Source: an uncultured Planctomycetia bacterium (GTDB taxonomy: Bacteria > Omnitrophota > Gorgyraeia > 2-01-FULL-45-10 > JAHFGN01). From it: 64,000 bases of DNA. Made by a program: the position numbers and the translations under genes. The stretch lies in contig CAYHAE010000001.1 of NCBI GenBank assembly GCA_964354545.1, positions 364-64,363 on the forward strand, given 5' to 3'. The notes under the pieces were generated by a model, which was not told where the DNA came from, searched no databases, and saw only the letters and a program-made list of their open reading frames with translations. Every line of letters begins with the position of its first letter. The first letter of the stretch is position 1. Below are positions 3,573-64,000 of this stretch, one piece after another.

Positions 3573-3685
3573 TTTTAGCGTATAGCGGTTAGTAAAATGG
3601 AGCTGACGGTAGAGTGATATACCAAGGTTTTTCACTATGCGCGCTATACGCTAAACGCTATACGCTGACCGCTAAACGCTCGATA
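3573..3685. repeat. Short copy of a terminal-inverted-repeat element. The arms TAGCGTATAGCGGTTAGTA and CTATACGCTAAACGCTATACGCT are separated by about 45 bp.
   Basis: The arms are reverse complements of each other. Near-identical arms flank a 440-bp insert at 61751-62194. Confidence 0.5.
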
Positions 3686-14540: not shown

Positions 14541-16301
14541 ATGAGACAGGAGGCACTCACGCTTTTCATCACCATACTGTTCGTCTTTCTTCTGCTGGGC
14601 CTCATCTATGCTCAGGTGCTGAACCACGACGCCTACTACGCTCAATCGCAAAATAATTTCATAAGGATAGTTCCCATCGACGGCCCGCGCGGGAAGATCT
14701 TTGACAGGAACGGCCGCATCATGGTGAACAACAGGCTCTCCCTCGACGTATCGTGCATCTATCAGGAGATAGGCCGCAAGGACCTGTTCATCAAGACGCT
14801 GGGTACGGTGCTTGGTACATCGCCAAGAGGCGTCATTCGGTGTCTGGAAAAGGCGAGCGAAAGGCCCTTTGCCCCCGTGACGCTGCAGGAGGATGTCGAG
14901 AAGGAGCGGGCGATAAGCCTGGAGGAACTCGAACCGGGCGTGCGGGGAGCGGTGATCGAGCCGAAATCAAAGAGGGATTACGTCTACGGATCCGCAGCGG
15001 GGCACATATGCGGATACCTTGGGGAAGTAAATGAAGAAGAGCTCGACCGGCTCAGGGGCTACGGGTACAGGATGCGGGACCTCATAGGCAGGAGCGGCCT
15101 GGAGAAATATTACAATAATTATCTCACGGGTATCGACGGGGGCGAGCAGATAGAAGTAGACGCGAGGGGGAGGCGCGTGAGCCTCCTCGGCCTCAAGGAG
15201 CCAAAGGCGGGGAAAGACCTATGGCTTACCATCGATGCCCGGCTCCAGCAGCTCGCACAGAATCTCCTCGAAGGGAAGACGGGGGCGATCGTGCTGATGG
15301 ACCCGAGGAACGGCGAGGTCCTCGCGCTCGCGAGCAGTCCCGCCTACGATCCCAACACATTTGTGAGGCCGAGAGAATTTGCGGAGCGCATGAGGCTGGT
15401 TGAGGACAGGTCCAAGCCGTTCTTGAACAGGGCGATAGGCGGTGTCTACGCGCCGGGTTCGGTATTCAAGATAGTGACCGCATGCGGAGCGCTCGAAACG
15501 AAAAAGATCTCACGGTATACCCGTTTCACCTGCACAGGAACGTATAAGCTCGGCGGCACTACGTTTCACTGTTGGAAAGAGGGCGGCCATGGGCCCCAGG
15601 ACATCATTGACGCGATCAAAAATTCCTGCAATGTGTTTTTCTATACGGCCGGCAAGAGCCTTGGCGTTGACGCGCTGGAGTCGTACGCGCTGCGGTTCGG
15701 TTTCGGCAAACCAACGGGAATAGACCTGCCTGAGGAGGCCTCCGGCCTTGTCCCCGGCAGGCTGTGGAAGATGCTCGCCAAGAAAGAGGCATGGTACGAT
15801 GGGGAGACGGTCAACTTGGCAATAGGGCAGGGATATCTCATGGTGACGCCGCTCCAGGTGCTCAGGATGACGGCGTGCATCGCGAACGGCGGGAAACTCG
15901 TCCGCCCCTTCATGGTGAAACGCATCGGCCCTGTAGAGGTGGGCAGCTCGCGGCTTCAAGACCTTGGGTTGTCGGCCGAGACCGTAAGGATCATAAAAGA
16001 AGGGATGCTCAAGGTCGTGAACGACGATTCCGGCACGGGCAGGCGCGCGAAAGTGGACGGTCTCGTAATAGGAGGGAAGACGGGAACGGCCCAGAATCCC
16101 CAGGGCGTGCCCCATGCGTGGTTCATCGGGTTTGCCCCAGCGGAAAACCCTTCGTTATCGGTCGTGGTCATGGTCGAGCACGGAGGGAGGGGCGGGTATG
16201 AACCCGCGGAGATCGCCCACGATATATTCAAGGCTGCGCGCGAGATGGGCTATCTGCCCGCTTCAGGTAAGGCAGTATCGGACGTCGCATCGCAGAGGTA
16301 A
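14541..16301 (+). CDS. mrdA: Penicillin-binding protein 2 (peptidoglycan D,D-transpeptidase MrdA).
   Basis: N-terminal TM segment, the PBP dimerisation domain, and transpeptidase motifs SVFK, SCN and KTGTA. Confidence 0.9.
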   Translation: MRQEALTLFITILFVFLLLGLIYAQVLNHDAYYAQSQNNFIRIVPIDGPRGKIFDRNGRIMVNNRLSLDVSCIYQEIGRKDLFIKTLGTVLGTSPRGVIRCLEKASERPFAPVTLQEDVEKERAISLEELEPGVRGAVIEPKSKRDYVYGSAAGHICGYLGEVNEEELDRLRGYGYRMRDLIGRSGLEKYYNNYLTGIDGGEQIEVDARGRRVSLLGLKEPKAGKDLWLTIDARLQQLAQNLLEGKTGAIVLMDPRNGEVLALASSPAYDPNTFVRPREFAERMRLVEDRSKPFLNRAIGGVYAPGSVFKIVTACGALETKKISRYTRFTCTGTYKLGGTTFHCWKEGGHGPQDIIDAIKNSCNVFFYTAGKSLGVDALESYALRFGFGKPTGIDLPEEASGLVPGRLWKMLAKKEAWYDGETVNLAIGQGYLMVTPLQVLRMTACIANGGKLVRPFMVKRIGPVEVGSSRLQDLGLSAETVRIIKEGMLKVVNDDSGTGRRAKVDGLVIGGKTGTAQNPQGVPHAWFIGFAPAENPSLSVVVMVEHGGRGGYEPAEIAHDIFKAAREMGYLPASGKAVSDVASQR

Positions 16302-16813
16302 ATAACGAGGCTCCTATCCGCCTCATGTAAAGCTGTATCGGATGTCGCATCGAAAAGGTAAATAACAAGGCTCCTATCCGCCTCATGTAAAGCTGTATCG
16401 GATGTCGCATTGCGGAGGTAACGCGCGAGGCTCCAGTCCCGACACCAGTGGAAAGCGAAGCGATCCCCGAAATCTTTCAGATTTCAGGGGAGACGTCGCA
16501 TCTCCCTCGACTTCGCTCGGGATGGTTCGTCCCTCGATATAACTCGGGATCGAATCCTGAGCCTGTCGAAGGATTCGAGGGATGGTGAGCAAAGTCGAAC
16601 CAGCAGAGGCAAAGAGCGAGGCTCCTATCCGCCTCCGGCAAAGCTCCATCGGATGTCGCATAGCAGAGGTAAATAACAAGGCTCCTATCCGCCTCATGTA
16701 AAGCTGTATCGGATGTCGCATTGCGGAGGTAACGCGCGAGGCTCCTATCCCGACCCCAGAGGAGTGGCGAAGCGGGATGTCGCATCGCAGAGGCAAAGAG
16801 CGAGGCTCCTATG
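16262..16813. repeat. Tandem array of about five or six degenerate 60-bp units. It runs from the last codons of mrdA to the rodA start codon and is interrupted by a 170-bp structured insert.
   Basis: The unit GTAAATAACGAGGCTCCTATCCGCCTCATGTAAAGCTGTATCGGATGTCGCATCG[CA/AA]GAG appears adjacent at 16300 and 16360, and again at 16610-16800. The copies are all variants of the ancestral mrdA-stop/rodA-RBS junction. Confidence 0.8.
16437..16612. repeat. Hairpin-rich insert (element A) that carries the 27-nt core CCCGAAATCTTTCAGATTTCAGGGGAG.
   Basis: It interrupts one 60-bp unit. Compare the intact unit at 16720-16790. The core at about 16466-16492 is identical to 29608-29634. Confidence 0.5.
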
Positions 16814-20193: not shown

Positions 20194-20494
20194 TTAGTGA
20201 ATGGTGAATAGTGAATAGGCCACCTTATCCGCCTTCGCAGAAGACCACGGATGTCAACCCGTGGATGAATGCGACCAGATGCTTCGGCGGTCGCCACCAA
20301 GGCTTCGGCGACCGTCCGCCGACGATTCAGTGGCGGACGGATGTCACACCTGACGTGCAGGCGGATACCCCCACCGCCTAGATTTACGAAGTAAATCTGG
20401 TGGGGGTAAAGAAAGGGACCACGGGCGTAAGCCCGTGGGGTTCCATTGGCCATATCGCAAAATTATTCACTAATAACCATTCACTATTCACTAA
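20194..20494. repeat. About 300-bp element with imperfect terminal inverted repeats (left TTAGTGAATGGTGAATAGTGAATAGGCCA, right TGGCCATATCGC...CCATTCACTATTCACTAA). The interior is a string of GC-rich hairpins.
   Basis: The ends are mutual reverse complements. Internal stems include CCACGG/CCGTGG, GTCGCC/GGCGAC, CGTCCGCC/GGCGGACG, CCCCCACC/GGTGGGGG and a GTAA tetraloop hairpin CACGGGC-GTAA-GCCCGTG. Confidence 0.5.
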
Positions 20495-20554: not shown

Positions 20555-20594
20555 TAATATGTTTACAGCGGATAACGAGTACGGGAGGAGATGG

Positions 20595-22010
20595 ATGAAG
20601 GCCATTTTTAAGAGACGCTCGACCACCCCCGACGGTTTTGGATATAAATTATTGCTCGCGTTCGGCCTTATGTCGGTGATACCCCTCCTGGTCGCCGTCT
20701 ACCTTGCTATCAACTACGTATTTCCCCAATTGAACACTCTTGTCGATATAAGCGTGGTGCTCAGTCTCTCCGCCCTCATTGCGTTTCTCGGATTTATCTT
20801 TGCACGGAAGGTCATCAAGCCGGTAGTCGATATGGCGGTCATGGCGCGGACGATCGCGAGCGGTCACTACGAAAAACAGATCCACATTTCCGGCAACGAC
20901 GAGATCGCGCAATTGGGTGAATCGATAAATGCGATCACGGCGAAGGTGCGGCTCAACATCGAGGAGATGAAGAGCTACAGCCACAAGGCGCAGGAGCTCA
21001 ACGTGGAGATACACAGGAGGATGGTGGTCCTCGCGGGCCTCCTCCAGGTGAGTGACGTGATATTGAGCAGCACCATGGAATTCAAGGATATCCTCGACCT
21101 GCTTGTCTCGAAGGTCTCCCAGGCGTACGATACGGGGTTCGCGGTATTATTTCTATCGAAGGACTCGCCCGAGCTCTTCTATCCTGTCGCACTCTGCAAT
21201 GCGGAGCACGAAGGGTTCGACAAGATCGTCATACGCGAGGGGAAGGGTTTTCTGGGGAAGCTGCTCTTCTCGAGGTCTATCTTAGTGATCGACTCCACTA
21301 TGCGGGAGACGAAGGAGATTGAGGAGTTCAAGAGGGCGCACCATGTGAAAAACCTCGTTGTATTTCCGATATTCTCCGGGAAGGATACGTTCGGGATACT
21401 CTTCGCCGGCAACCGGCTCGATAATTACAAGTTCTCCTCCGATGAATTCGATATCGTGAAGATCTTCGCGAAGCAGATCGCGATCGCCGTTGAGAATAAT
21501 ATCCTCGTGAGAAAGACGAAGGAGCTCGCCCTGAAAGACGACCTCACGAACCTCTTCAACAGGAATTACATATTCCCGAGGCTCGATGAGGAGATCAAGA
21601 GGGCGCTCTTCTTTCAAAGGCCGTGCTCATTCTTAATGATCAACGTGGACGAGTACAGGAAGTTCAGGGATGACTGTGGAGAGATAGCCTCCGAGGAAGC
21701 GCTCAAGAAGATCGCCGACATCCTGAAGGGCTATGTCGAACCGTTCGGGAAAGCGGCAAGGATCGCGGGTGACGAATTTGCGCTCCTCCTGCCGGAAAAG
21801 AATAAGCGGCAGTCGCTGGAGATCGCCGAAGCGATACGGAGGAAGATCGAATCGTCGAGCTTCGCCGAATCTCAAACCAAGCCCTTGACCGTGAGCATAG
21901 GCGTGAGCGAAAACCCGATAGACGGGTCGACGCAGGAAGATATCGCAAAGAGCGCTGCGGCGTTTCTTGCGCACGCAAAAGCGCAGGGCAAGAACAGGGT
22001 CGTTGGTTGA
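20595..22010 (+). CDS. Membrane sensor diguanylate cyclase with HAMP, GAF and GGDEF domains. The active-site motif is AGDEF.
   Basis: Two TM segments, a HAMP domain, a GAF domain and a GGDEF domain (RIAGDEFALLLPE). I chose the MKAIF start with its strong RBS. Confidence 0.85.
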   Translation: MKAIFKRRSTTPDGFGYKLLLAFGLMSVIPLLVAVYLAINYVFPQLNTLVDISVVLSLSALIAFLGFIFARKVIKPVVDMAVMARTIASGHYEKQIHISGNDEIAQLGESINAITAKVRLNIEEMKSYSHKAQELNVEIHRRMVVLAGLLQVSDVILSSTMEFKDILDLLVSKVSQAYDTGFAVLFLSKDSPELFYPVALCNAEHEGFDKIVIREGKGFLGKLLFSRSILVIDSTMRETKEIEEFKRAHHVKNLVVFPIFSGKDTFGILFAGNRLDNYKFSSDEFDIVKIFAKQIAIAVENNILVRKTKELALKDDLTNLFNRNYIFPRLDEEIKRALFFQRPCSFLMINVDEYRKFRDDCGEIASEEALKKIADILKGYVEPFGKAARIAGDEFALLLPEKNKRQSLEIAEAIRRKIESSSFAESQTKPLTVSIGVSENPIDGSTQEDIAKSAAAFLAHAKAQGKNRVVG

Positions 22011-23640: not shown

Positions 23641-25354
23641 GCTTACCAAGATACTGATAGACGCGAAGCTCATCACCTACGAAGACCTCCTCAAGGCCAT
23701 CACGGTTCAAAAAGATCGCGGGGGAACGCTGGGCGAAACGCTTGTCAATCTCGGGCACATCTCTAAAGACCAGCTCATGCTCGCCATAAGCCAGGGCCTC
23801 GGGATACCCCCGATAAACCTCTCCCGCTATAAGGTAGATCCGAATATCCTAAGGCTGATACCGCCGAAGATCGCCAAGCACTACCAGATCATACCGCTCT
23901 CCAAGATAGGGAACACCCTCACGGTCGTCATGTCTGACCCGCTCAATATATTCGCGATCGACGGCATAAAGGCATTCACGGGCCTGAAGATATCCCCCCT
24001 CATCACTACCGAGCAGGACATAAAGGACGCCATCGCGCAATACTATGAGGAGGATGCGTCTTTGGTCATGGATAAGATCGTCGACGACCTGGGAGGGGGC
24101 GGCGAGATCACGGTGGTCGAAGAGAAGGGCGCTGCCGAAGGAGAGACGTCCACGGAATTGCTCAAGATGACGCAGGATGCGCCCGTAGTGAAATTTACAA
24201 ACGCCATACTCGCGGAAGGCGTTGACGTAAAGGCGAGCGACATCCTTGTGGAGCCTCTCGAGGACCAGATGAGGGTACGGTACAGGGTCGACGGCATTCT
24301 GCATGAAGGAAAGCACGCCCCAAAGGTGATGCACAAAGGCATTGTGTCGAGGCTCAAGGTAATGTCTGAGCTCAACATCGCCGAGCGCAGGCTGCCGCAA
24401 GACGGGCGGTTCAAGATACGCCTCCACAATCGGGAGATCGATTTCAGGATCTCCGTGCTCCCTTCGAAAGAAGGGGAGAAGGTGGCGCTCCGGATACTGG
24501 ATAAAGCGCAGGCGAAGCTCAACATAGAGGACCTCGGTTTTGATGAACATTCGGTCACGGAGATGAAGAAGGCCGCCGCCAAACCCCACGGCATGATACT
24601 CGTCGCCGGCCCGACAGGGTGCGGAAAGACGACGACCCTCTACTCTATCTTAAAGCATGTCGATTCACCCACGCTCAACCTCGTGACAGTGGAGGACCCT
24701 GTCGAGTACCTGTTGGATGGCATCAACCAGGTCACCGCGCGGCCCGACCTCGGTCTGACGTTCGCATCTGCGCTGAGGTCTATCTTGCGGCAGGACCCCG
24801 ACGTCGTGATGATAGGCGAGATAAGGGATTTTGAGACGGTCGATATCGCGATCAAGTCTGCGCTCACAGGGCATCTCGTGTTGAGCACGCTCCATACGAC
24901 GACCGCGCCCGGTTCGGTGATCCGCCTTGTGGATATGGGGGTCGAACCCTTTCTCCTCACGTCCTCCCTCATCCTGGTCGTGGCGCAGCGGTTGGTGAGG
25001 AAAATCTGTATGGTGTGCAAAGAACCGGTGAAATTAGACGACGCGATCGCGGAAAAGCTCAGGCTTGACGCGAATGAGGTGAAGGGCACGTTGTACCGGG
25101 GGAGGGGCTGCGACACGTGTTTAAAGACGGGCTATAAAGGCCGCGTGGGCATTGTGGAGGTGCTGTCCCTTACGCCAAAGGTAAAAGAGCTCATCCTCAA
25201 GGGTGTCCAGGAGTATGAGATACGGGATGAGGCGAGGAAAGAAGGGATGCTGAGCCTGCGCGAGAACGGGATAAAGAAGGTGTTAGAAGGGGCCACGACG
25301 CTTGACGAGGTCTTCCGTGTCACCGTGGGGAACCAGGATCTGGAGCTGAAATAA
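23618..25354 (+). CDS. pilB: Type IV pilus assembly ATPase PilB (GspE family), paralog 1.
   Basis: Tandem GspE-N domains at the N-terminus, Walker A GPTGCGKTTT and the tetracysteine motif CMVCK...CDTC. Confidence 0.9.
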   Translation: MELSLRDRLTKILIDAKLITYEDLLKAITVQKDRGGTLGETLVNLGHISKDQLMLAISQGLGIPPINLSRYKVDPNILRLIPPKIAKHYQIIPLSKIGNTLTVVMSDPLNIFAIDGIKAFTGLKISPLITTEQDIKDAIAQYYEEDASLVMDKIVDDLGGGGEITVVEEKGAAEGETSTELLKMTQDAPVVKFTNAILAEGVDVKASDILVEPLEDQMRVRYRVDGILHEGKHAPKVMHKGIVSRLKVMSELNIAERRLPQDGRFKIRLHNREIDFRISVLPSKEGEKVALRILDKAQAKLNIEDLGFDEHSVTEMKKAAAKPHGMILVAGPTGCGKTTTLYSILKHVDSPTLNLVTVEDPVEYLLDGINQVTARPDLGLTFASALRSILRQDPDVVMIGEIRDFETVDIAIKSALTGHLVLSTLHTTTAPGSVIRLVDMGVEPFLLTSSLILVVAQRLVRKICMVCKEPVKLDDAIAEKLRLDANEVKGTLYRGRGCDTCLKTGYKGRVGIVEVLSLTPKVKELILKGVQEYEIRDEARKEGMLSLRENGIKKVLEGATTLDEVFRVTVGNQDLELK

Positions 25355-27063
25355 TGGAGGCCCTCAAGGATAGGATCCTCAGGGTGCTCATCGATACGCA
25401 ACGCGTGAAGCCGAGCGAGCTCAAGAGGGTCCTCGAAAAGCAGAAGGACAGCCGGACGAGCATGAGCAAGGTCCTGGTCCAGGAGGGTCTCATCTCAGAG
25501 AAGGACCTCATGCTGATCTTGAGCCAGGAACTGAACATCCCTCCCATAAGCCTTTCGAAATATAAGATCGACCAGGCCACCGTACGCCTCATTCCGGAAA
25601 AGATCGCCCGTCAGTTCTTTCTCATTCCGCTTTCGAAGATCGGAAAGGTGCTCACCGTTGCAATGTCCGACCCGCTCAACATCATCGCCATCGACGAGGT
25701 GAAGCTGCTCACGAACTATAAGATAGACCTCGTCATCGCAACAGAGAACGACATCAAAGAGGCGCTCGATGCCTACTATGGTACCGCGACCCTCGAGACA
25801 CAGGAGGCGCTGGATACGCGCGCTGTCGGCGAGGAGCTCGAGATCGTTGAGGGAGAGGAGTTCGATGTCGACAGCATCTCCCAAGAGAGCCAGAAGGCTC
25901 CCATCGTGAAGATGGTGGACGTGATCTTGAACGATGCGCTGAGGAGGCGTTCGAGCGACATACACATTGAGTCGTGCGAGAAGATGCTGCGGATACGGTA
26001 CAGGATCGACGGAGACCTTCAGGAGGTCTTTAAACTCCCGAAGAAGAACCAGAATGCCATCATCGCACGATTTAAGATCATGTCCAAGCTCGACATCACG
26101 GAGACGCGTCTCCCGCAGGACGGGAGGTTCAGGATAAACTTCGAAGGGAAGGAGATAGACTTCAGGGTCTCGGTGCTTCCCATTGCGTTCGGGCCGAAGA
26201 TCGTCTTGAGGGCGCTCGATAAATCGAACTTGAGCGTGGGGCTCGACAAGCTCGGCTTCCTTCCGTATTCCCTCAATGTCTTCAAGGAGGCGCTCAAGCG
26301 TCCGTACGGCATGATACTCGTCACAGGGCCGACGGGGAGCGGGAAGTCGACCACCCTGTATTCCATCATCAATCAACTCAACACGCCCGAGAGGAATATC
26401 GTGACGCTCGAGGAGCCTGTGGAGTACGAGTTGCAGGGCATCACGCAGGTCGAGGTGAGGTCGGATATCGGCCTCACCTTTGCGAACGGGCTCCGGTCCA
26501 TCTTGCGGCAGAGCCCCGATGTGATCATGGTCGGAGAGATCAGGGATTTCGAGACGGCGGATATCGCGATAAAGGCCTCGCTCACAGGGCAGCTCATCCT
26601 GAGCACGCTCCACACGAACGACTCGGTCGGAGCTATTACGAGGCTCGTCGATATGAAGGTGGAACCATTTCTGTTATCATCGAGCCTCATCATGGCATGC
26701 GCCCAGAGGCTCCTCAGGAGGACCTGCCCCCATTGCAGGGCCGAGGTGGACGTGCCCAAAGGTGTCTTGGAGGAATTCGGCATCGATCCGCTTGACGAGC
26801 ACAAGAAGAAGAGGGTCTTCTATGAGGGGAAAGGGTGCGAGAAGTGCAACAGCTCCGGTTACTATGGAAGGTCCGGGATACTTGAGGCGTTCCTCATCGA
26901 TGACACGATGCGCGATATGATCATCAGGAGGGCATCGAGCGACGAACTGAAGGCGCATGCCATGAAAAAAGGGATGAGGACGCTGAGGCAAGAAGCGCTG
27001 GAAAATTTCGTCAACGGTGTCACGACCCTGGAAGAGGTCTTGAGGGTGACCGCGGAGGGGTAA
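25354..27063 (+). CDS. Second GspE-family assembly ATPase (PilB paralog 2).
   Basis: Same architecture as paralog 1: Walker A GPTGSGKSTT and CPHCR...CEKC. Its start overlaps the paralog-1 stop in a TAATG arrangement. Confidence 0.85.
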   Translation: MEALKDRILRVLIDTQRVKPSELKRVLEKQKDSRTSMSKVLVQEGLISEKDLMLILSQELNIPPISLSKYKIDQATVRLIPEKIARQFFLIPLSKIGKVLTVAMSDPLNIIAIDEVKLLTNYKIDLVIATENDIKEALDAYYGTATLETQEALDTRAVGEELEIVEGEEFDVDSISQESQKAPIVKMVDVILNDALRRRSSDIHIESCEKMLRIRYRIDGDLQEVFKLPKKNQNAIIARFKIMSKLDITETRLPQDGRFRINFEGKEIDFRVSVLPIAFGPKIVLRALDKSNLSVGLDKLGFLPYSLNVFKEALKRPYGMILVTGPTGSGKSTTLYSIINQLNTPERNIVTLEEPVEYELQGITQVEVRSDIGLTFANGLRSILRQSPDVIMVGEIRDFETADIAIKASLTGQLILSTLHTNDSVGAITRLVDMKVEPFLLSSSLIMACAQRLLRRTCPHCRAEVDVPKGVLEEFGIDPLDEHKKKRVFYEGKGCEKCNSSGYYGRSGILEAFLIDDTMRDMIIRRASSDELKAHAMKKGMRTLRQEALENFVNGVTTLEEVLRVTAEG

Positions 27064-27119
27064 AGGAGCAAGAGGGGACCGTGAGTCCCTTGAGCGCGAC
27101 ACGGAGCGGAGGACGTGCC

Positions 27120-28334
27120 ATGCCACACTTTCGATATACCGCAAAAGACAGCAAGGGGAATTCGCTCAAAGGCGTGTTAGAGGCCGCCACGAGGCAGGAA
27201 GCGGTGGCCGCCCTCCATAAGCAGGGCGTGTTGATCATATCGCTCGGCGAGGTGAAGGCAAAGCAGGCGGGGCGTTCGGCCGGCCACTTTGCAAAGAAGG
27301 TGAAGATGGACGAGCTTGTCATCTTCTCCCGGCAGCTCGCGACGATGGTCGATGCGGGGATACCTCTCGTAGGCGCTCTCGACATCCTTGGGCAGCAGAT
27401 AGAGACAAAGTCGTTCAAAAACGTGGTGCAGGGGATCCGCGAACGGGTGGAGGCAGGGGAGAGCCTTTCTGACGCCATGTCAAAACACAGGACGATCTTC
27501 TCAGAGCTTTTCGTCAATATGGTGAAGGCGGGGGAGGCGAGCGGCATGCTCGATGAGATACTCGAAAAGGTCGCAGAATATCTTGAAAAGACGAGTGCGC
27601 TGCAGAGGAAAGTTCAGTCCGCACTCATCTATCCGGCGGTAGTGACCTCGATGGCGATCGGCATTACGCTCGTCCTTCTGATCAAGGTGATCCCGGTCTT
27701 CAAAGATATATACTCAGGCTTTGGGGCAGCGCTTCCCAGGCCGACGCAAATCCTCATCTTCGTGAGCGATGCCCTCGGAAAGTATTTCCTCGTGACTACG
27801 ATTGTCCTCGTGCTCGTCTTCATTGCCCTCGGTCGATATCTCCGTACGGAGCGCGGCAGATTTATGTTCGATAGTTTCCTTCTCAGCGTTCCCGTATTCG
27901 GGGTCCTGTTCAAAAAGGTAGCAGTGAGCAAATTCACAAGGACGCTTTCTACGCTCGTGAAGAGCGGCGTCCCCATACTCACCTCACTTGAGATAGTGAG
28001 CAGGACATCGGGCAATAAGGCGGTAGAAGCGGCATTAGAAGTGGTCCGCAAGAATGTGCGCGAAGGCGAGAGGATCGCGGACCCTCTTGCGAAATCGAAG
28101 ATATTTCCTCCGATGGTGGTGAGGATGGTTGCTGTGGGTGAACAGGCCGGACAACTTGAGAAGATGCTCACCAAGATAGCAGATTTTTATGAAACCCAGG
28201 TGGACGCTGCGGTAAGCGGCCTCACGAGCCTTATCGAACCCCTCATTATTCTATTTCTTGGCATCGTCATAGGAACCATTGTCATCTGTATGTTCCTGCC
28301 CATATTCAGGCTCACCTCTGTATTGGGTGGGTAA
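27120..28334 (+). CDS. pilC: Type IV pilus platform protein PilC (GspF family).
   Basis: Two T2SSF repeats separated by TM segments. I chose the MPHFRY start. The track ORF begins 13 codons upstream. Confidence 0.9.
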   Translation: MPHFRYTAKDSKGNSLKGVLEAATRQEAVAALHKQGVLIISLGEVKAKQAGRSAGHFAKKVKMDELVIFSRQLATMVDAGIPLVGALDILGQQIETKSFKNVVQGIRERVEAGESLSDAMSKHRTIFSELFVNMVKAGEASGMLDEILEKVAEYLEKTSALQRKVQSALIYPAVVTSMAIGITLVLLIKVIPVFKDIYSGFGAALPRPTQILIFVSDALGKYFLVTTIVLVLVFIALGRYLRTERGRFMFDSFLLSVPVFGVLFKKVAVSKFTRTLSTLVKSGVPILTSLEIVSRTSGNKAVEAALEVVRKNVREGERIADPLAKSKIFPPMVVRMVAVGEQAGQLEKMLTKIADFYETQVDAAVSGLTSLIEPLIILFLGIVIGTIVICMFLPIFRLTSVLGG

Positions 28335-28518: not shown

Positions 28519-28546
28519 TTGACAAATGTGCGGCATAAGGTATACT
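28519..28546 (+). promoter_or_regulatory. Sigma-70-type promoter for pilin 1. Layout: TTGACA, 16-nt spacer, TATACT.
   Basis: It lies about 100 nt upstream of pilin copy 1 and shares the TTGACAAATG...GGTATACTT block with the GGDEF promoter. Confidence 0.5.
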
Positions 28547-28648
28547 TTATAATGGAACCCAGTATCTGTTAAAGAGAGGGGGTGGAAAGGGGATAATTTA
28601 AAGACTTTTTTTATCGGACCCATTTTTGGGAAAAAGGAGGGATGAGAC

Positions 28649-28984
28649 ATGGTCAGAAGACATAAAAAGGGATTCACGCTTGTTGAAATCATGATAGTCG
28701 TCGCAATTATAGGTCTATTGGCTGCCATCGCTATCCCGAACTTTGTGAGGGCGAGAGAGACGGCAGAAAGAAATGCGTGTATCGCAAACCTGAAGCAGAT
28801 ACAGGGTGCAGTTCAGGTGTGGGCGATCGACACGAGTGCGGGGTCCACTTCAACGCCAACCGCGACATCAGATCTCGCGAACTACATAAAGACATGGCCG
28901 AAGTGCAAAACAACTACGTATGCGATACCCGCAGTCAGTGCAAACCCCGCGTGTCCAACCACCGGCACTGGACACAACCTCTAA
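28649..28984 (+). CDS. Type IV pilin (prepilin N-terminal cleavage/methylation domain), copy 1.
   Basis: Class III signal MVRRHKKG|FTLVEIMIVVAIIGLLAAIAIP with a Cys pair in the C-terminal region. An RBS (AGGAGG) precedes it. Confidence 0.85.
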   Translation: MVRRHKKGFTLVEIMIVVAIIGLLAAIAIPNFVRARETAERNACIANLKQIQGAVQVWAIDTSAGSTSTPTATSDLANYIKTWPKCKTTTYAIPAVSANPACPTTGTGHNL

Positions 28985-29019
28985 TCTTAAGGGGTAATCC
29001 ATTTTTCGTGCGAGGTGCG

Positions 29020-29057
29020 AAAAGGACGGCTATCGTATTATTGCCGTCCTTTTTGCT
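29020..29057 (+). terminator. Rho-independent terminator after pilin copy 1.
   Basis: AAGGACGGC-loop-GCCGTCCTT followed by TTTTT. Confidence 0.6.
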
Positions 29058-29180
29058 TTGGGTATTTCGAAAATTATTTAATTATTATCAGAGCACAACA
29101 GCTGTAAATGAAAGGGGGTGAGGACCGGCCTAAAGACTTTTTTTATCGGACCCATTTTTGGGAAAAAGGAGGGATGAGAC

Positions 29181-29516
29181 ATGGTCAGAAGACATAAAAA
29201 GGGATTCACGCTTGTTGAAATCATGATAGTCGTCGCAATTATAGGTCTATTGGCTGCCATCGCTATCCCGAACTTTGTGAGGGCGAGAGAGACGGCAGAA
29301 AGAAATGCGTGTATCGCAAACCTGAAGCAGATACAGGGTGCAGTTCAGGTGTGGGCGATCGACACGAGTGCGGGGTCCACTTCAACGCCAACCGCGACAT
29401 CAGATCTCGCGAACTACATAAAGTCATGGCCGAAGTGCAAAACAACGACGTATGCGATACCCGCAGTCAGTGCAAACCCCACGTGTCCAACCACCGGCAC
29501 TGGACACAACCTTTAA
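29181..29516 (+). CDS. Type IV pilin, copy 2.
   Basis: The protein differs from copy 1 at 2 of 111 residues (T to S and A to T). The upstream leader and RBS are also duplicated. Confidence 0.85.
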   Translation: MVRRHKKGFTLVEIMIVVAIIGLLAAIAIPNFVRARETAERNACIANLKQIQGAVQVWAIDTSAGSTSTPTATSDLANYIKSWPKCKTTTYAIPAVSANPTCPTTGTGHNL

Positions 29517-29518
29517 TC

Positions 29519-29715
29519 CTGTTATCAGAGTTCCACGAGCTACGCCCGTGGGTTGCACCCGCGGACGTAGACCGCGGGTGCATGGCGGAGCGGTCCGGGA
29601 TTTAATTCCCGAAATCTTTCAGATTTCAGGGGAGCGGTTGCCGCACAAGGAGAGTATTCAGTGCGGGTACCGCGGGCTGCGTGCCAACGGCAGGCGTACC
29701 CGTGGGGCTCCAGGC
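29519..29715. mobile_element. Structured insert of about 197 bp (element B) in the 3' UTR of pilin copy 2. It carries the same 27-nt core as element A.
   Basis: Copy 1 reads TAATC|TTAAGGGG. Copy 2 reads TAATC[197 bp]TTAAGGGG. The insert is hairpin-dense (TGCACCCGCGG/CCGCGGGTGCA, CCACG/CGTGG, GCCGCAC/GTGCGG) and has the core at 29608-29634. Confidence 0.5.
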
Positions 29716-29749
29716 TTAAGGGGTAATCCATTTTTCGTGCGAGGTGCGG

Positions 29750-29790
29750 AAAGGACGGCTATCATATTATTGCCGCCCTTTTCTTTTTAG
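29750..29790 (+). terminator. Terminator after pilin copy 2 (slightly degraded duplicate of the copy-1 terminator).
   Basis: AAAGGACGGC-loop-GCCGCCCTTTTCTTTTT. Confidence 0.5.
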
Positions 29791-29905
29791 GACAGCGCGA
29801 TAAACGTTTTTCATAATGCAATCGTGATATCGGGGCCACGTATCTGTTGAAGAGTAAGGCGCTTTTTGACTTCACCCGATCCTAGGAGGGAAGGGGGGAT
29901 GAGAC

Positions 29906-30241
29906 ATGGTCAGAAGACATAAAAAGGGATTCACGCTTGTTGAAGTCATGATAGTCGTTGCAATCATAGGTCTATTGGCTGCCATCGCCATCCCCAACTT
30001 TGTAAGGGCGAGAGAGACGGCAGAAAAGAGCGCGTGTATATCAAACCTGAAGCAGATACAGGGTGCGGTCGAAATGTGGGTACTCGATACGAGCGCGGCA
30101 TCTTCGTCAACGGCGTCTGGAACATCAGACCTTGTGAATTACATAAAGGTATGGCCAAAGTGTAAGGCGAGCACATATGCGATACCTGCGGCAGACGGAA
30201 CGCCCGTGTGTCCGAACAGCATAGGCGGACACAACCTCTAA
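29906..30241 (+). CDS. Type IV pilin, divergent third paralog.
   Basis: Same N-terminal domain as copies 1 and 2. The variable C-terminal half is divergent but the Cys pair is conserved. Confidence 0.85.
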   Translation: MVRRHKKGFTLVEVMIVVAIIGLLAAIAIPNFVRARETAEKSACISNLKQIQGAVEMWVLDTSAASSSTASGTSDLVNYIKVWPKCKASTYAIPAADGTPVCPNSIGGHNL

Positions 30242-30313: not shown

Positions 30314-30424
30314 ATTATAATATTAGGTATGTACCCTTTATGAGATGGTTTGACTAATTGGAGGAAGATGCGGTTTAGAAGGCAAGGTATCATTTTGACC
30401 GGATGCCTGTTTATAACGGTATGT

Positions 30425-30463
30425 AAAGCACCCTTCTCATTTGTGCGCGGGGTGCTTTTTTCA
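30425..30463 (+). terminator. Intrinsic terminator between that promoter and pilM.
   Basis: AAGCACCC-loop-GGGTGCTT followed by TTTTTC. Confidence 0.55.
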
Positions 30464-30555
30464 TGTCTCGTCCGGCGCGTATGTATGAGCCCTGCGCCTC
30501 ATTTCGATACTTTTAACCCAGAAGACCTGCCTTACGCTCTACCGAGAGGGATAAT

Positions 30556-31563
30556 ATGCCGAAAGCAAGGGTAGAGAAAAAACTGGGTATCGATATCGGA
30601 AGCTACGCCATAAAGTTGGTCGAACTTCACTTGTCCAAGGATGAGAACAGGGTCGCCAGCATTGGAATTAAAAGGATCGAGAACAGCTCCCCGGAAGCCC
30701 TAGCAGGAAAGGTGAGGGAGCTCTGCGAGGAATCAAAAGTGAAGACGAGGGACGTGAGCCTGTCTGTCTCCGGCCCGCAGGTTATCACGCGGCTCATTAC
30801 AATGCCGACAATGTCCGACTCGGAAATGAAGAATGCGCTCGTGTTCGAAGTCGAGAAGACCATCCCCTTTAGTCCCGAAGAGGTTATCTACGATTACCAG
30901 GTGCTCGAGCGAGGGAAAGAGAAGAAGATGGACGTCCTGCTCACGGCGGTCAAGAGAGATTACGTGCAAAAGTACATCCAGATCGCCCAGTCGAGCGACC
31001 TGAGCCTTCGCGTCGTGGACGTGGACTCCCTTGCGCTCGCAAATGCGTTCGTGAAAAACTCCGAAGGCTCCCTCGACCAGAATAAGACGGTCGCGCTTCT
31101 CAATATCGGCGACAGATATACGAACCTCGACATATTGCGCGGAGGGGTCTTGAGCTTCTCCAGGGATATACAGATAGGAGGGCGCGATGTCAATGAGTCC
31201 ATTGCGCGGATACTGAACGTCGACAGCAAGGGCGCGGAAAAGCTGAAGTTCGACCCCAAGGAGCGCGCGGACGAAATAGGCCTTCCCATTAGAATGGTGT
31301 TGGCCAATCTGGCTGACGAGCTGAGGCTGTCATTTGGGTATTTCGAGAATAGATTCGGGAGGAACGTCGATGACCTGTATCTCTCCGGAGGGTCATGCGG
31401 CCTGCTCGGCGTGACCGAATACCTCGAGGAGAACCTTGGGCTCAAGGCGAAGGTGTGGGACCCCCTCAAGGCGTTTAGCATAGATCAGGAAAACGTAGGA
31501 AAAGCACTCTCGAACGAGATGAGGCGCAGCCTCGCGGTGAGCGTGGGGCTTGCCCTGAGATAA
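30556..31563 (+). CDS. pilM: Type IV pilus assembly protein PilM (actin-like).
   Basis: The N-terminus LGIDIGSYAIKLVEL has the actin/HSP70 fold. It is followed by pilN, pilO, pilP and pilQ. Confidence 0.85.
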   Translation: MPKARVEKKLGIDIGSYAIKLVELHLSKDENRVASIGIKRIENSSPEALAGKVRELCEESKVKTRDVSLSVSGPQVITRLITMPTMSDSEMKNALVFEVEKTIPFSPEEVIYDYQVLERGKEKKMDVLLTAVKRDYVQKYIQIAQSSDLSLRVVDVDSLALANAFVKNSEGSLDQNKTVALLNIGDRYTNLDILRGGVLSFSRDIQIGGRDVNESIARILNVDSKGAEKLKFDPKERADEIGLPIRMVLANLADELRLSFGYFENRFGRNVDDLYLSGGSCGLLGVTEYLEENLGLKAKVWDPLKAFSIDQENVGKALSNEMRRSLAVSVGLALR

Positions 31564-41408: not shown

Positions 41409-41420
41409 CGGCAAATAACG

Positions 41421-41452
41421 TTCCGCCGGAGGCGGATCCGCCTTCGGCGGAA
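41421..41452. repeat. Perfect 32-bp palindrome TTCCGCCGGAGGCGGATCCGCCTTCGGCGGAA (REP-like). Copy 1 of 2.
   Basis: Self-complementary. A second copy is at 53810-53841. Both are followed by AAAGTGCAA. Confidence 0.7.
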
Positions 41453-41668
41453 AAGTGCAAAGCGTCCGCTACTAAATCATCAGCGGACGCCCGCCAAAGT
41501 TCGCTACTAATGCTTCAGCGAACCCGCTGATGCATTAATGGCGGGCTTTGTGGCGGGCGAAAAACGAAAAACTGTGGTGTCCCTCCGGGACCTAAATGTA
41601 AAGGTCGCGGGAGCGACTCCACCGTTTTGCGTTTTGCGCTTTTAGTTTTTCGCTGGTATGCGCATATC

Positions 41669-51853: not shown

Positions 51854-51931
51854 TTTATACCGTTTGAGAATCGCATCGGCAACGTGTTCCCGAGTTGAGA
51901 TCCCACCTGCTCCCAACGACCGCACTACGCC

Positions 51932-51966
51932 ATACGCAATACGCGATACGCAATACGCAATACGAA
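51932..51966. repeat. Five tandem heptamers ATACGCA / ATACGCG / ATACGAA.
   Basis: Direct reading. It lies in the rsmA-gatC spacer. The motif resembles the CGCTATACGC repeat arms seen elsewhere in the window. Confidence 0.6.
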
Positions 51967-53791: not shown

Positions 53792-53809
53792 CGGCAAATG
53801 CAGGAAGTG

Positions 53810-53841
53810 TTCCGCCGAAGGCGGATCCGCCTTCGGCGGAA
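53810..53841. repeat. Second copy of the REP-like palindrome TTCCGCCGAAGGCGGATCCGCCTTCGGCGGAA.
   Basis: Matches 41421-41452 at 31 of 32 positions. Confidence 0.7.
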
Positions 53842-53879
53842 AAGTGCAATGTGTAAAGTGTAAGATGTGATCAGATACC

Positions 53880-61755: not shown

Positions 61756-62194
61756 CGTATAGCGGCTAGTACACTAACATCGCTTATAATATCCATAGTC
61801 CACAGACCACAGACAATAGACCATAGACTGTGAAACGCGGACCATATGCTAAACACCAAAATATCCAGTCACGCATCAGTTTTACGTGTTGAGTGTGTGG
61901 TACGATGAAGGGGTGGACGGATCCAGGGCATAAAAGCGCCCGGGGCCCCCGAGGGGCGGCATTGAGCGGGACGTAAAAATCGCGAGCGGGCACGGATCCC
62001 GAGCCCGCTAAAAGATGTATGCGAGGGAGAGCGAGCGATTTTTCTCGAGTGCAATTTTCCTCGCCGGGGAAAATTGCACGTTCCCGCGAAATGACGACCC
62101 GAGAGGGGGCAAGAGCTTGCAATGAAGGAGGTGGGTGGCATGCTGTATAGGATGCTCAATCCTATACGCTAAACGCTATCCGCTATACGCTATT
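61751..62194. repeat. About 440-bp element flanked by TAGCGTATAGCGGCTAGTA and CTATACGCTAAACGCTATCCGCTATACGCT. It is the long version of the 3573-3685 element.
   Basis: The arms are nearly identical to those at 3573 and 3650. The interior holds a 12-bp-stem hairpin GTGCAATTTTCC/GGAAAATTGCAC. It separates larB from larC. Confidence 0.5.
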
Positions 62195-63483: not shown

Positions 63484-64000
63484 TGAACCTAGAGATGACA
63501 CCAGCCTTACGCAAGACATTTCGCCCGTCGGTCTATGGTCTATGGTCTTTAGTCTTTAGTCTTGCGTCGCTAGTCGTTGGTCTATGGTCCATAGTCTTTA
63601 GTCTTTTTCTGGCCTTCGGTCTCTCCACCGCACGCGCCGACACCGTCATAAAGCGAGACGGCCGCGAGCTGAAGGGGATCATCGTCGAGGATTACTACGA
63701 CAGGATCGTCCTCTCAACGCCTGACGGCGAGGTCCAGGTCCTGAAGTCCGATGTTCGGGAATTATCGTACGACTCTGAAGAAGACAATCTGATAAAACTC
63801 GGAGACCTCGCAAAAGAGAGGAGCAATTACGAAGCCGCCTACTCATACTATGAAAAAGCATTCAACATGAATCCCAATTCGAAACCCGCAAAAGACGGAA
63901 TGATGTACCTCAAGGGGTTCCTCTTCCGAAAAGAAGAGGCGAAGAAGGAAGAGGACATTAAGCGCCGCACAGAGTTCGAACGATACCAGGTTGCCGGGAT
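63484..64000 (+). CDS. 5' part of a secreted or membrane protein (hydrophobic leader, then a possible TPR-like region). It runs off the window end.
   Basis: ATG at 63484. The leader LWSLVFSLASLVVGLWSIVFSLFLAFGLSTARA precedes a soluble region. The frame is still open at 64000. Confidence 0.45.

Follow-up and report, generated by a model that had tools for sequence, protein, structure and literature searches.

Two near-identical type IV pilin genes and a hairpin-rich, gene-less insert behind one of them point to gene conversion and a probable transposase-less mobile element in an Omnitrophota-like genome

What is a 197-nt, hairpin-rich insert doing behind only one of two almost identical pilin genes, and how did the two genes come to be so alike? 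Both questions are raised by a stretch of 64,000 nucleotides (hereafter the window) on contig CAYHAE010000001.1 of a metagenome-assembled genome (MAG) from an Omnitrophota-like bacterium, in which a type IV pilus cluster carries three tandem pilin open reading frames (ORFs) of 111 amino acids on the + strand, with pilB and pilC upstream and pilM and pilO downstream. A first-pass annotation had read pilin copies 1 and 2 as a recent tandem duplication and the insert, here called E1, as a mobile or structured element gained by copy 2 after that event. The analysis reported here leads to a partly different answer, to which we assign a probability of roughly 0.6: an old three-gene pilin family has been homogenised by gene conversion, and E1 is a non-autonomous element of the HUH/Y1 type, similar to the palindrome-associated transposable elements (PATEs) and related to repetitive extragenic palindromic (REP) sequences and REPINs.

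Comparison of the pilin genes (copy 1, 28649-28984; copy 2, 29181-29516; copy 3, 29906-30241) revealed 98.2% protein identity between copies 1 and 2, whose coding sequences differ at four nucleotides, two of them causing the replacements T82S and A101T, in accord with the two differing codons counted before, and two being silent (codons 89 and 111); at these sites copy 2 is marked by T at 29424, G at 29447, A at 29481 and T at 29513. The start-to-start spacing of 532 nt agrees with the earlier estimate of a unit of about 530 bp, and copy 3 is the more divergent paralogue, as described (80% nucleotide and 76.6% amino-acid identity to copy 2). An identical block of about 293-300 nt begins at 28599 and 29131; its 293-nt tract (28599-28891 versus 29131-29423, + strand) takes in the 5' leader, the ribosome-binding site (RBS) and the first 243 nt of the coding sequence. 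The absence of any difference over these 293 nt is followed by 11 differences in 171 nt (Fisher p = 1.4e-5), and similarity ends abruptly upstream of 28599 and past about 29062. Leader and RBS are thus identical from 28599/29131 onward, as had been claimed, whereas the terminators, claimed to be shared as well, carry hairpin substitutions at 29020, 29035 and 29047 and further tail differences at 29054-29060. From its sharp border, we interpret the tract 28599-28891 as the product of recent gene conversion between the two copies, in line with the ongoing conversion suggested at first pass; for dosage amplification, the alternative named there, the evidence speaks neither way.

A protein search returned a 95%-identical pilin on an 859-bp ENA contig from an independent assembly (ERZ27247591; hereafter L016), which runs from the unique copy 1-copy 2 spacer through the pilin gene and the same insert and ends inside the post-insert repeat. 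By this arrangement, the gene is taken as the positional orthologue of copy 2 in a related strain. Copy 2 shares 96.1% identity with this orthologue and 98.8% with its paralogue copy 1, and at seven of the nine sites where L016 departs from both window copies it carries the base of copy 3. Because the orthologue resembles copy 2 less than copy 1 does, the duplication appears older than the strain split, and since spacer, gene and insert occur together in L016, the tandem arrangement and E1 would both predate it. The simplest reading is that the array with E1 is older than the split and that copies 1 and 2 of the window were later homogenised by conversion, which would explain their near-identity better than the recent duplication first proposed; that tempting proposal is corrected by the sharp tract together with the L016 orthologue. 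In related genomes, a syntenic Logan contig (L017) holds two dissimilar tandem pilins and a JGI contig (L018) a single one, so that pilin copy number is variable within the group.

The insert itself measures exactly 197 nt (29519-29715, + strand) and lies between TAATC, which includes the stop codon, and TTAAGG, with a 1-nt ambiguity (C) at the boundary. In copy 1 the same site is uninterrupted (TAATC^TTAAGG, 28982-28992, with the stop TAA at 28982-28984 and ^ marking the junction), it falls in a weak local hairpin (ACCTCT-AATCTTA-AGGGGT), and no target duplication accompanies the insert; the borders, the restriction to copy 2 and the empty site were therefore correctly described at first pass. 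E1 begins 2 nt past the stop codon of copy 2, and its first strong stem lies 12 nt past the stop. From left to right on the + strand it comprises a 14-nt left tip; a sub-terminal hairpin 14 nt from the left end (29533-29551, CCACGAGC-TAC-GCCCGTGG); hairpin A with a perfect 10-bp stem (29555-29581, GCACCCGCGG-ACGTAGA-CCGCGGGTGC); a nested, 5'-truncated, REP-like hairpin doublet of 40 nt (29595-29634); hairpin B (29641-29666, CCGCAC...GTGCGG), with a Shine-Dalgarno-like AAGGAGAG in its loop; a right sub-terminal hairpin (29670-29705, CCGCGGGC...CCCGTGG) with a small hairpin nested in its loop; and a 10-nt right tip GGCTCCAGGC that reaches 29715. As sense RNA, E1 folds at -115.4 kcal/mol (z = -6.9 versus shuffles) and as antisense RNA at -98.4 kcal/mol, and both strands fold far better than shuffles as RNA and as DNA. 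In L016 the element sits at the same place with 93% identity, 12 substitutions and one indel. At a distance of 6 nt, the Shine-Dalgarno-like loop motif of hairpin B is followed by a GTG, from which a frame of 21 codons runs to a TAA past the element (29641-29718); L016 preserves this frame, differing in it by one silent and one replacement change, and chance is its probable origin.

A sister element, E2, supplies the rule by which E1 can be understood. Its window copy E2a (20230-20446, + strand, 217 nt) lies between a radical-SAM gene and a GGDEF gene, directly 3' of TTATC (20225-20229) and at the apex of a 93-nt palindrome; it has sub-terminal hairpins at 20245-20264 and 20419-20438, the right end GCCCGTGGGGTTCCAT and an RNA fold of -115.4 kcal/mol (z = -6.6). 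A homologous insert of 177 nt, E2b, occupies the 5' leader of the copy 2 orthologue (L016 97-273), 37 nt upstream of the start codon, where it interrupts TTTTTTTATC^GGACCC; this sequence is intact in the window (29141-29153), where its TTATC in the + strand leader of copy 2 (29143-29147) is the empty E2b site; the motif also stands in the leader of copy 1 (28611-28615). With E1 in the 3' untranslated region (UTR) and E2b in the 5' leader, one gene has thus been struck in both untranslated regions. A c-di-GMP riboswitch as an identity for the leader insert was rejected, the Rfam scan being negative and the insert being E2. Scanning metagenome contigs with the E2 right end yielded two further copies, one just upstream of a fabG-like gene (L022) and one cut by a contig end (L024); the other six of the eight pattern matches lay inside coding regions and were regarded as chance.

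The four E2 copies, at four loci, combine conserved ends with interiors in which whole hairpin modules vary. Where the left junction is visible, in three copies (window 20225-20239, L016 and L022), it reads TTATC^CGCCTTCGCA, and the right flanks are unrelated among the four copies (TGGCC, CGGAC, GATAC and TATTT). E1 follows the same plan, being placed directly 3' of TAATC without duplication, and neither of the two empty sites, copy 1 for E1 and the window leader for E2b, shows a target duplication beyond the 1-nt ambiguity. At its right end E1 reads ACCCGTGGGGCTCCA, which is homologous to and matches GCCCGTGGGGTTCCA of E2, and within the window the 14-mer CCCGTGGGGYTCCA is confined to these ends of E1 and E2a (0.04 expected by chance). 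Hairpins of the form CCRCGRG...CCCGTGG are restricted, in the window, to both ends of E1, the right end of E2a and one coding-region match; the left end of E2a has a related CCACGG...CCGTGG hairpin, present in the sequence and in the E2 consensus structure. The distance to the element end is 14-15 nt for the left hairpins and 8-10 nt for the right ones, and no terminal inverted repeat was found in E2. Such common, conserved ends point to recognition by a protein. We also observed the E2 target motif TTATC inside E1 (29522-29526), 3 nt from its left end, where L016 reads TTAGTC.

Insertion at a fixed motif, the lack of duplication, clean empty sites, hairpins and the absence of any gene together led us to propose IS200/IS605-type single-strand transposition of a PATE. 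Members of the insertion sequence (IS) group IS200/IS605 insert next to a transposon-associated motif (TAM) without duplication, excise without a scar and have gene-less PATE derivatives (PMC10055086); the related systems of REPINs and REP-associated tyrosine transposases (RAYTs) employ this enzyme class too (PMC3116915, PMC6006769). On this model, a Y1 HUH transposase encoded outside the window would move E1 and E2 in trans: it would recognise the sub-terminal CCRCGRG...CCCGTGG hairpins, one strand would be peeled out as a circle, whose junction for excised E1 would read GGCTCCAGGC^CTGTTATCAG, and the circle would be pasted directly 3' of T(T/A)ATC, leaving the target unduplicated. An autonomous IS of this kind would be bounded by TTATC^CGCC...GGTTCCAT, and, if its transposase is found, the E1/E2 ends and T(T/A)ATC would define a new IS200/IS605-type subgroup and target rule. 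E1 and E2a both lie on the + strand of a window in which all genes share that strand and the GC skew is +0.09 throughout; these are the only two cases in the window, and their placement is consistent, if weakly, with a lagging-strand-template bias (PMC6006769).

Because such elements excise without a scar, the date of insertion relative to the duplication is not readable from the empty site of copy 1, which may never have been occupied or may have been vacated. While the empty site, the kinship with E2 and the strong fold uphold the first-pass view of a mobile and structured insert, its dating to after the duplication does not follow from that site, as E1 is already present in the related strain and excision can be scarless (PMC10055086).

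E1 is oriented in the sense direction and separates the stop codon of copy 2 from its terminator. With no terminator-like site found inside it, E1 would be part of the copy 2 mRNA and would form a very stable 3' UTR structure there. The terminator-like hairpin and T-run of copy 1 lies at 29020-29056 and that of copy 2 at 29749-29788 (both + strand), the latter separated from its stop codon by 233 nt owing to E1. In E. coli, REP structures in such a position can stabilise the upstream mRNA, and those very near a stop codon can interfere with translation termination. An effect of E1 on the expression of copy 2 is therefore plausible: the structure may alter mRNA decay or translation termination of this copy only, and as a non-homologous block E1 would also limit conversion tracts. 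Upstream of copy 1, a sigma-70-like promoter was predicted (28519-28546, + strand, TTGACA-16-TATACT, 11/12 match); no promoter match was found upstream of copy 2, and the regions upstream of the shared leader differ between the two copies.

E1 holds a further repeat, which connects it to a larger hairpin family. A stretch of 27 nt in its middle, CCCGAAATCTTTCAGATTTCAGGGGAG, recurs exactly at 16466-16492 in the mrdA-rodA spacer, where it belongs to a solo hairpin, H2 (16465-16490, + strand, CCCCGAAATCTTTCAGATTTCAGGGG); the H2 of E1 itself spans 29608-29632. A scan of one genome per species located the 25-mer of H2 at 12 loci in 9 MAGs, whose record labels (Omnitrophota, Planctomycetia, Sedimentisphaerales and Ratteibacteria) stand for several phyla of the PVC group. 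In these MAGs it forms doublets, in which the 7-nt linker AYTWAGT joins a hairpin H1 to H2 and the one-base bulges of the two hairpins mirror each other; each MAG contig has two to three doublets, all intergenic between ordinary genes, and their stems vary yet stay paired, while the window has two solo or truncated hairpin copies only. Positions 77-116 of E1 match the 3' part of one such doublet (L004) at 39 of 40 positions, and so E1 is composite, with a REP/REPIN-like fragment inside a larger element. The family is made of short imperfect palindromes, paired in inverted orientation, multiple and intergenic, as expected of REP/REPIN sequences; it shows strong covariation and is common to several MAGs, and no GTAG-type foot was found in it. 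No transposase was detected among the seven doublet-adjacent ORFs put through Pfam, the doublet neighbours being housekeeping genes; the sole exception is a homing-endonuclease-like ORF of 211 amino acids with HNH_3 and AP2 domains between two doublets (L008 3818-4661). In three contigs, doublets are nested in the loop of another H2-like hairpin (L007 26-150, L009 about 2120-2250 and L011 3185-3310), with the outer stems CCTTGGAAT and ATTCCTAAGG, CCCGGAAATC and GATTTCTCGGG, and CCTGCACAATCT and AGATTGTGCAAGG, respectively, an arrangement that suggests self-targeting of hairpin loops.

Several observations weigh against transposition of E1 by a single-strand enzyme. Neither a Y1 TnpA nor a RAYT or TnpB was found among the window ORFs put through Pfam, a search confined to these 64 kb. 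E1 is seen at one locus only, in two strains, and its mobility is deduced from the empty site of copy 1 and the kinship with E2. Imperfect terminal inverted repeats (CCTG...CAGG, then GAGYYCCACGRG) are another possible reading of its ends, one atypical of IS200/IS605, and the guide-to-target complementarity that defines site recognition by TnpA is not demonstrable: in three of four E2 copies the AGAAG/AAAAG on the 5' side of the left hairpin might pair with TTATC (by eye), with nothing comparable in E1, and all four E2 copies contain an internal GGCGGATA with complementarity to their left junction TATC^CGCC, though outside the canonical position. Folded as single-stranded DNA, both strands of E1 reach similar energies (-53.4 versus -50.6 kcal/mol), so that no active strand is evident, and the 17 kcal/mol by which the sense RNA exceeds the antisense would also suit a function as RNA. 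Finally, a target within a significant hairpin loop was seen for E2a alone (z = -7.3), and the three remaining empty sites fold no better than shuffles; a rule that the elements always insert into hairpin loops was accordingly rejected.

The sense-strand fold leads directly to the rival that survives best, namely a dedicated RNA acting in cis. On this view E1 was selected to tune copy 2, be it as a stabiliser or processing site in the 3' UTR or as a small RNA derived from the 3' end, and its likeness to repeats is incidental. We consider this unlikely. Besides the very strong fold and its strand preference, E1 is kept at the same place in the second strain, its onset lies immediately behind the stop codon, and only 5 of the 12 strain substitutions fall in the paired positions that make up 72% of the element (p = 0.026), two of these keeping their pair through G-U. 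One short predicted helix is, however, broken in L016, and compensatory double changes are absent from the two sequences that can be compared. Also counting against a dedicated regulator, neither pilin copy 1 nor copy 3 has an E1, and it is missing from L017 and L018, pilin loci at a greater distance; its right end and hairpins are shared with E2 in contexts as unrelated as a 5' leader, a position upstream of fabG and the radical-SAM/GGDEF gap, and its core is a repeat of many unrelated intergenic regions. Known RNA families offer no support either. Scans with Rfam 15, which includes models of the IS605-orfB/omega-RNA type and HEARO, covered the window, the pilin and E2a regions, L016, L004 and the 12 loci, at gathering score and at E <= 10: no gathering-score match was obtained in the window or the 12 loci, nothing overlay E1 in the window or L016 even at E <= 10, and overlaps at E > 4 with E2a and the L004 doublet region concerned unrelated families and were taken as chance. 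A hammerhead or other small ribozyme was likewise rejected, the core motifs being absent and Rfam negative.

Somewhat less credible still is an origin of E1 without any dedicated transposase, by template switching, palindrome expansion, illegitimate recombination or conversion from another locus. This explanation draws on the interior of E1, which is a mosaic of palindromic modules: an 8-nt direct repeat, GGAGCGGT, brackets the nested piece (29587-29594 and 29631-29638), E2 copies vary by whole-module insertions and swaps, and hairpin A has its loop in opposite orientations in the two strains (ACGTAG in the window versus CTACGT at L016 682-708), a signature of intrastrand template switching. 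In its own right, this inverted loop resembles the product of a hairpin-mediated template switch; one G-C pair of the same hairpin has become G-T/U in L016. What such processes explain poorly are the borders. The recurrent T(T/A)ATC left flank and the two clean empty sites would be hard to obtain from random replication errors, the conserved ends that E1 and E2 have in common argue for a protein that recognises them, and no donor sequence was found elsewhere in the 64-kb window.

Two more surprising routes go beyond a PATE-like element moved in trans, and we regard both as rather doubtful. Doublets nested in hairpin loops, together with an identical 25-mer across phylum labels, hint at an undescribed hairpin-seeking single-strand system that would comprise E1, E2 and the doublets and operate across genomes of the Omnitrophota/Planctomycetota type. 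Alternatively, E1 could be a guide-RNA-bearing PATE: its right end may be transcribed together with the flank TTAAGGGGTAATCC, and a TnpB-like nuclease encoded elsewhere may target the empty site of copy 1, with TAATC as TAM, which may drive homing and, as a by-product, pilin gene conversion. Among the readings weighed, the cross-MAG doublet family and this use of a paralogous empty site are the only ones that would be more surprising than the reading we prefer.

A miniature inverted-repeat transposable element (MITE) mobilised by a DDE transposase, or a miniature IS110/IS1111 bridge-RNA element, appears very unlikely. Shifting the ends by 1 nt does produce CCTG...CAGG, followed by the imperfect inverted repeat GAGYYCCACGRG(C)TACGCC, and IS1111-type elements also have sub-terminal inverted repeats and target hairpins. 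DDE MITEs, however, make a target duplication, which neither documented insertion shows, and terminal inverted repeats are absent from E2; target recognition by bridge-RNA recombinases involves both flanks, whereas in E2 the left flank alone is conserved and the right flanks are unrelated. An integron attC site (no GTTRRRY/RYYYAAC cores) and a retron or diversity-generating retroelement (no reverse transcriptase nearby) were rejected as identities of the insert. That the duplication or the insert is an assembly artefact is scarcely credible, for although the window comes from a MAG contig and near-identical repeats are error-prone in short-read assembly, L016, from an independent ENA assembly, runs across spacer, copy 2 and E1 with its breaks falling precisely on the repeat borders, 11 positions distinguish the 3' parts of copies 1 and 2, and tandem pilins also occur in the syntenic L017.

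Searches for relatives beyond those described gave little. The left-end 20-mer of E1 had no match in metagenome contigs or in viral contigs, the 25-mer of H2 had none in viral contigs, and a scan for the hairpin A palindrome returned a single match, an unrelated phage hairpin. The translations of E1 and E2a, searched against a protein database for spurious ORFs called within other copies, had no match, and neither did blastn of the two elements against plasmids. No literature on the hairpin sequence, or on Omnitrophota together with REP, was found. Exact-protein look-ups of pilin copies 1-3 and of the genes flanking E2a gave no match, and that of pilM returned one 1.3-kb contig and nothing else.

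Sequence and surroundings support the identity of the host genes as pilins. All three pilins match Pfam N_methyl (E = 1e-10) and have the cleavage motif KKG^FTLVE (prepilin leader MVRRHKKG^FTLVE in copy 1), with G-1, F+1, E+5, a hydrophobic N-terminal helix and a pilus gene context, as is typical of type IV pilins. Upstream lie pilB (T2SSE, 25354-27063) and pilC (T2SSF, 27081-28334), downstream pilM (30556-31563), and a secretin-type operon is a further neighbour in the cluster. The gene 3' of E2a (20559-22010) encodes a HAMP-GAF-GGDEF diguanylate cyclase and stands directly upstream of the pilT/pilB-like ATPase genes of the cluster. The gap between the last pilin and pilM (30369-30470) contains a short ORF (MRFR..G..L..CL) followed by a terminator-like stem AGCACCC...GGGTGCTTTTTT, and both are kept in the distant relative L018 (776-880).

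Other repeats were noticed in the window. The mrdA-rodA spacer (16232-16812) has two blocks of 60-nt tandem repeats (16258-16421 and 16602-16812), which reiterate GAGGCTCCTATG, the RBS/start context of rodA, and reach into the end of the mrdA ORF; besides the solo H2 hairpin, the 180-nt stretch between the blocks contains several further palindromes. Two copies of a 46-nt palindromic repeat, GTTCCGCCGGAGGCGGATCCGCCTTCGGCGGAAAAGTGCAA, are present with 93% identity, each just past a gene end (41420-41465 and 53809-53854), and its module GCGGATCCGCC...GGCGGAAA is also present in L004 and L024; it may represent another REP-like family or a family of bidirectional terminators. Intergenic arrays of the heptamers CGCTAAA, CGCAATA, CTATACG and GTCTTTA were found at 3642-3680, 51921-51964, 62162-62193 and 63531-63606, some of them related to each other and to inverted copies at 61797-61828.

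Taken together, the locus provides a worked example of small, scar-free elements in the UTRs of a highly expressed surface-protein gene, from a phylum known almost only from metagenomes. That two different insertions, E1 in the 3' UTR and E2b in the 5' leader, affect one gene across two strains suggests that such elements may commonly cause expression differences between paralogues and between strains.

Among known systems, the pilE/pilS loci of Neisseria with their 3' Sma/Cla repeat offer a parallel in the combination of close pilin paralogues, mosaic variants and a non-coding repeat just 3' of one copy. Unlike in Neisseria, all three copies are full-length with their own RBS, there is no silent cassette, the visible conversion homogenises rather than diversifies, and there is no evidence that E1 takes part in recombination. 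The REP sequences, bacterial interspersed mosaic elements (BIMEs) and REPINs of Enterobacteria and Pseudomonas are resembled by the nested hairpin and the doublets, which are short imperfect palindromes with a bulge, inverted around a 7-nt linker, intergenic with several per contig, often co-transcribed at gene ends and assembled into mosaics with other palindromic modules. The differences from REP/REPIN sequences lie in the missing GTAG-type foot, in stems that vary widely yet stay paired, in the lack of any RAYT seen, in an identical 25-mer across MAGs of different phylum labels and in doublets nested within other hairpin loops. The closest likeness is to the PATEs, transposase-less derivatives of IS200/IS605 elements (IS608, ISDra2 and ISGst families) that are moved in trans by a Y1 HUH TnpA and have no described members in this Omnitrophota-like host group. 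E1 and E2 depart from them in that no cognate TnpA, TnpB or omega-RNA was identified, guide-to-TAM pairing is not demonstrable, the end hairpins of E1 can also be read as inverted repeats and E1 holds another repeat nested inside. They agree with them in being gene-less elements of about 200 nt, in lying directly 3' of a fixed 5-nt motif without duplication and with clean empty sites, and in combining conserved ends with variable interiors. Their sub-terminal hairpins near both ends and the sense or leading-strand orientation of the two window copies are consistent with such elements. E1 is thus best filed as a familiar kind of selfish DNA, not yet described for this poorly studied group.

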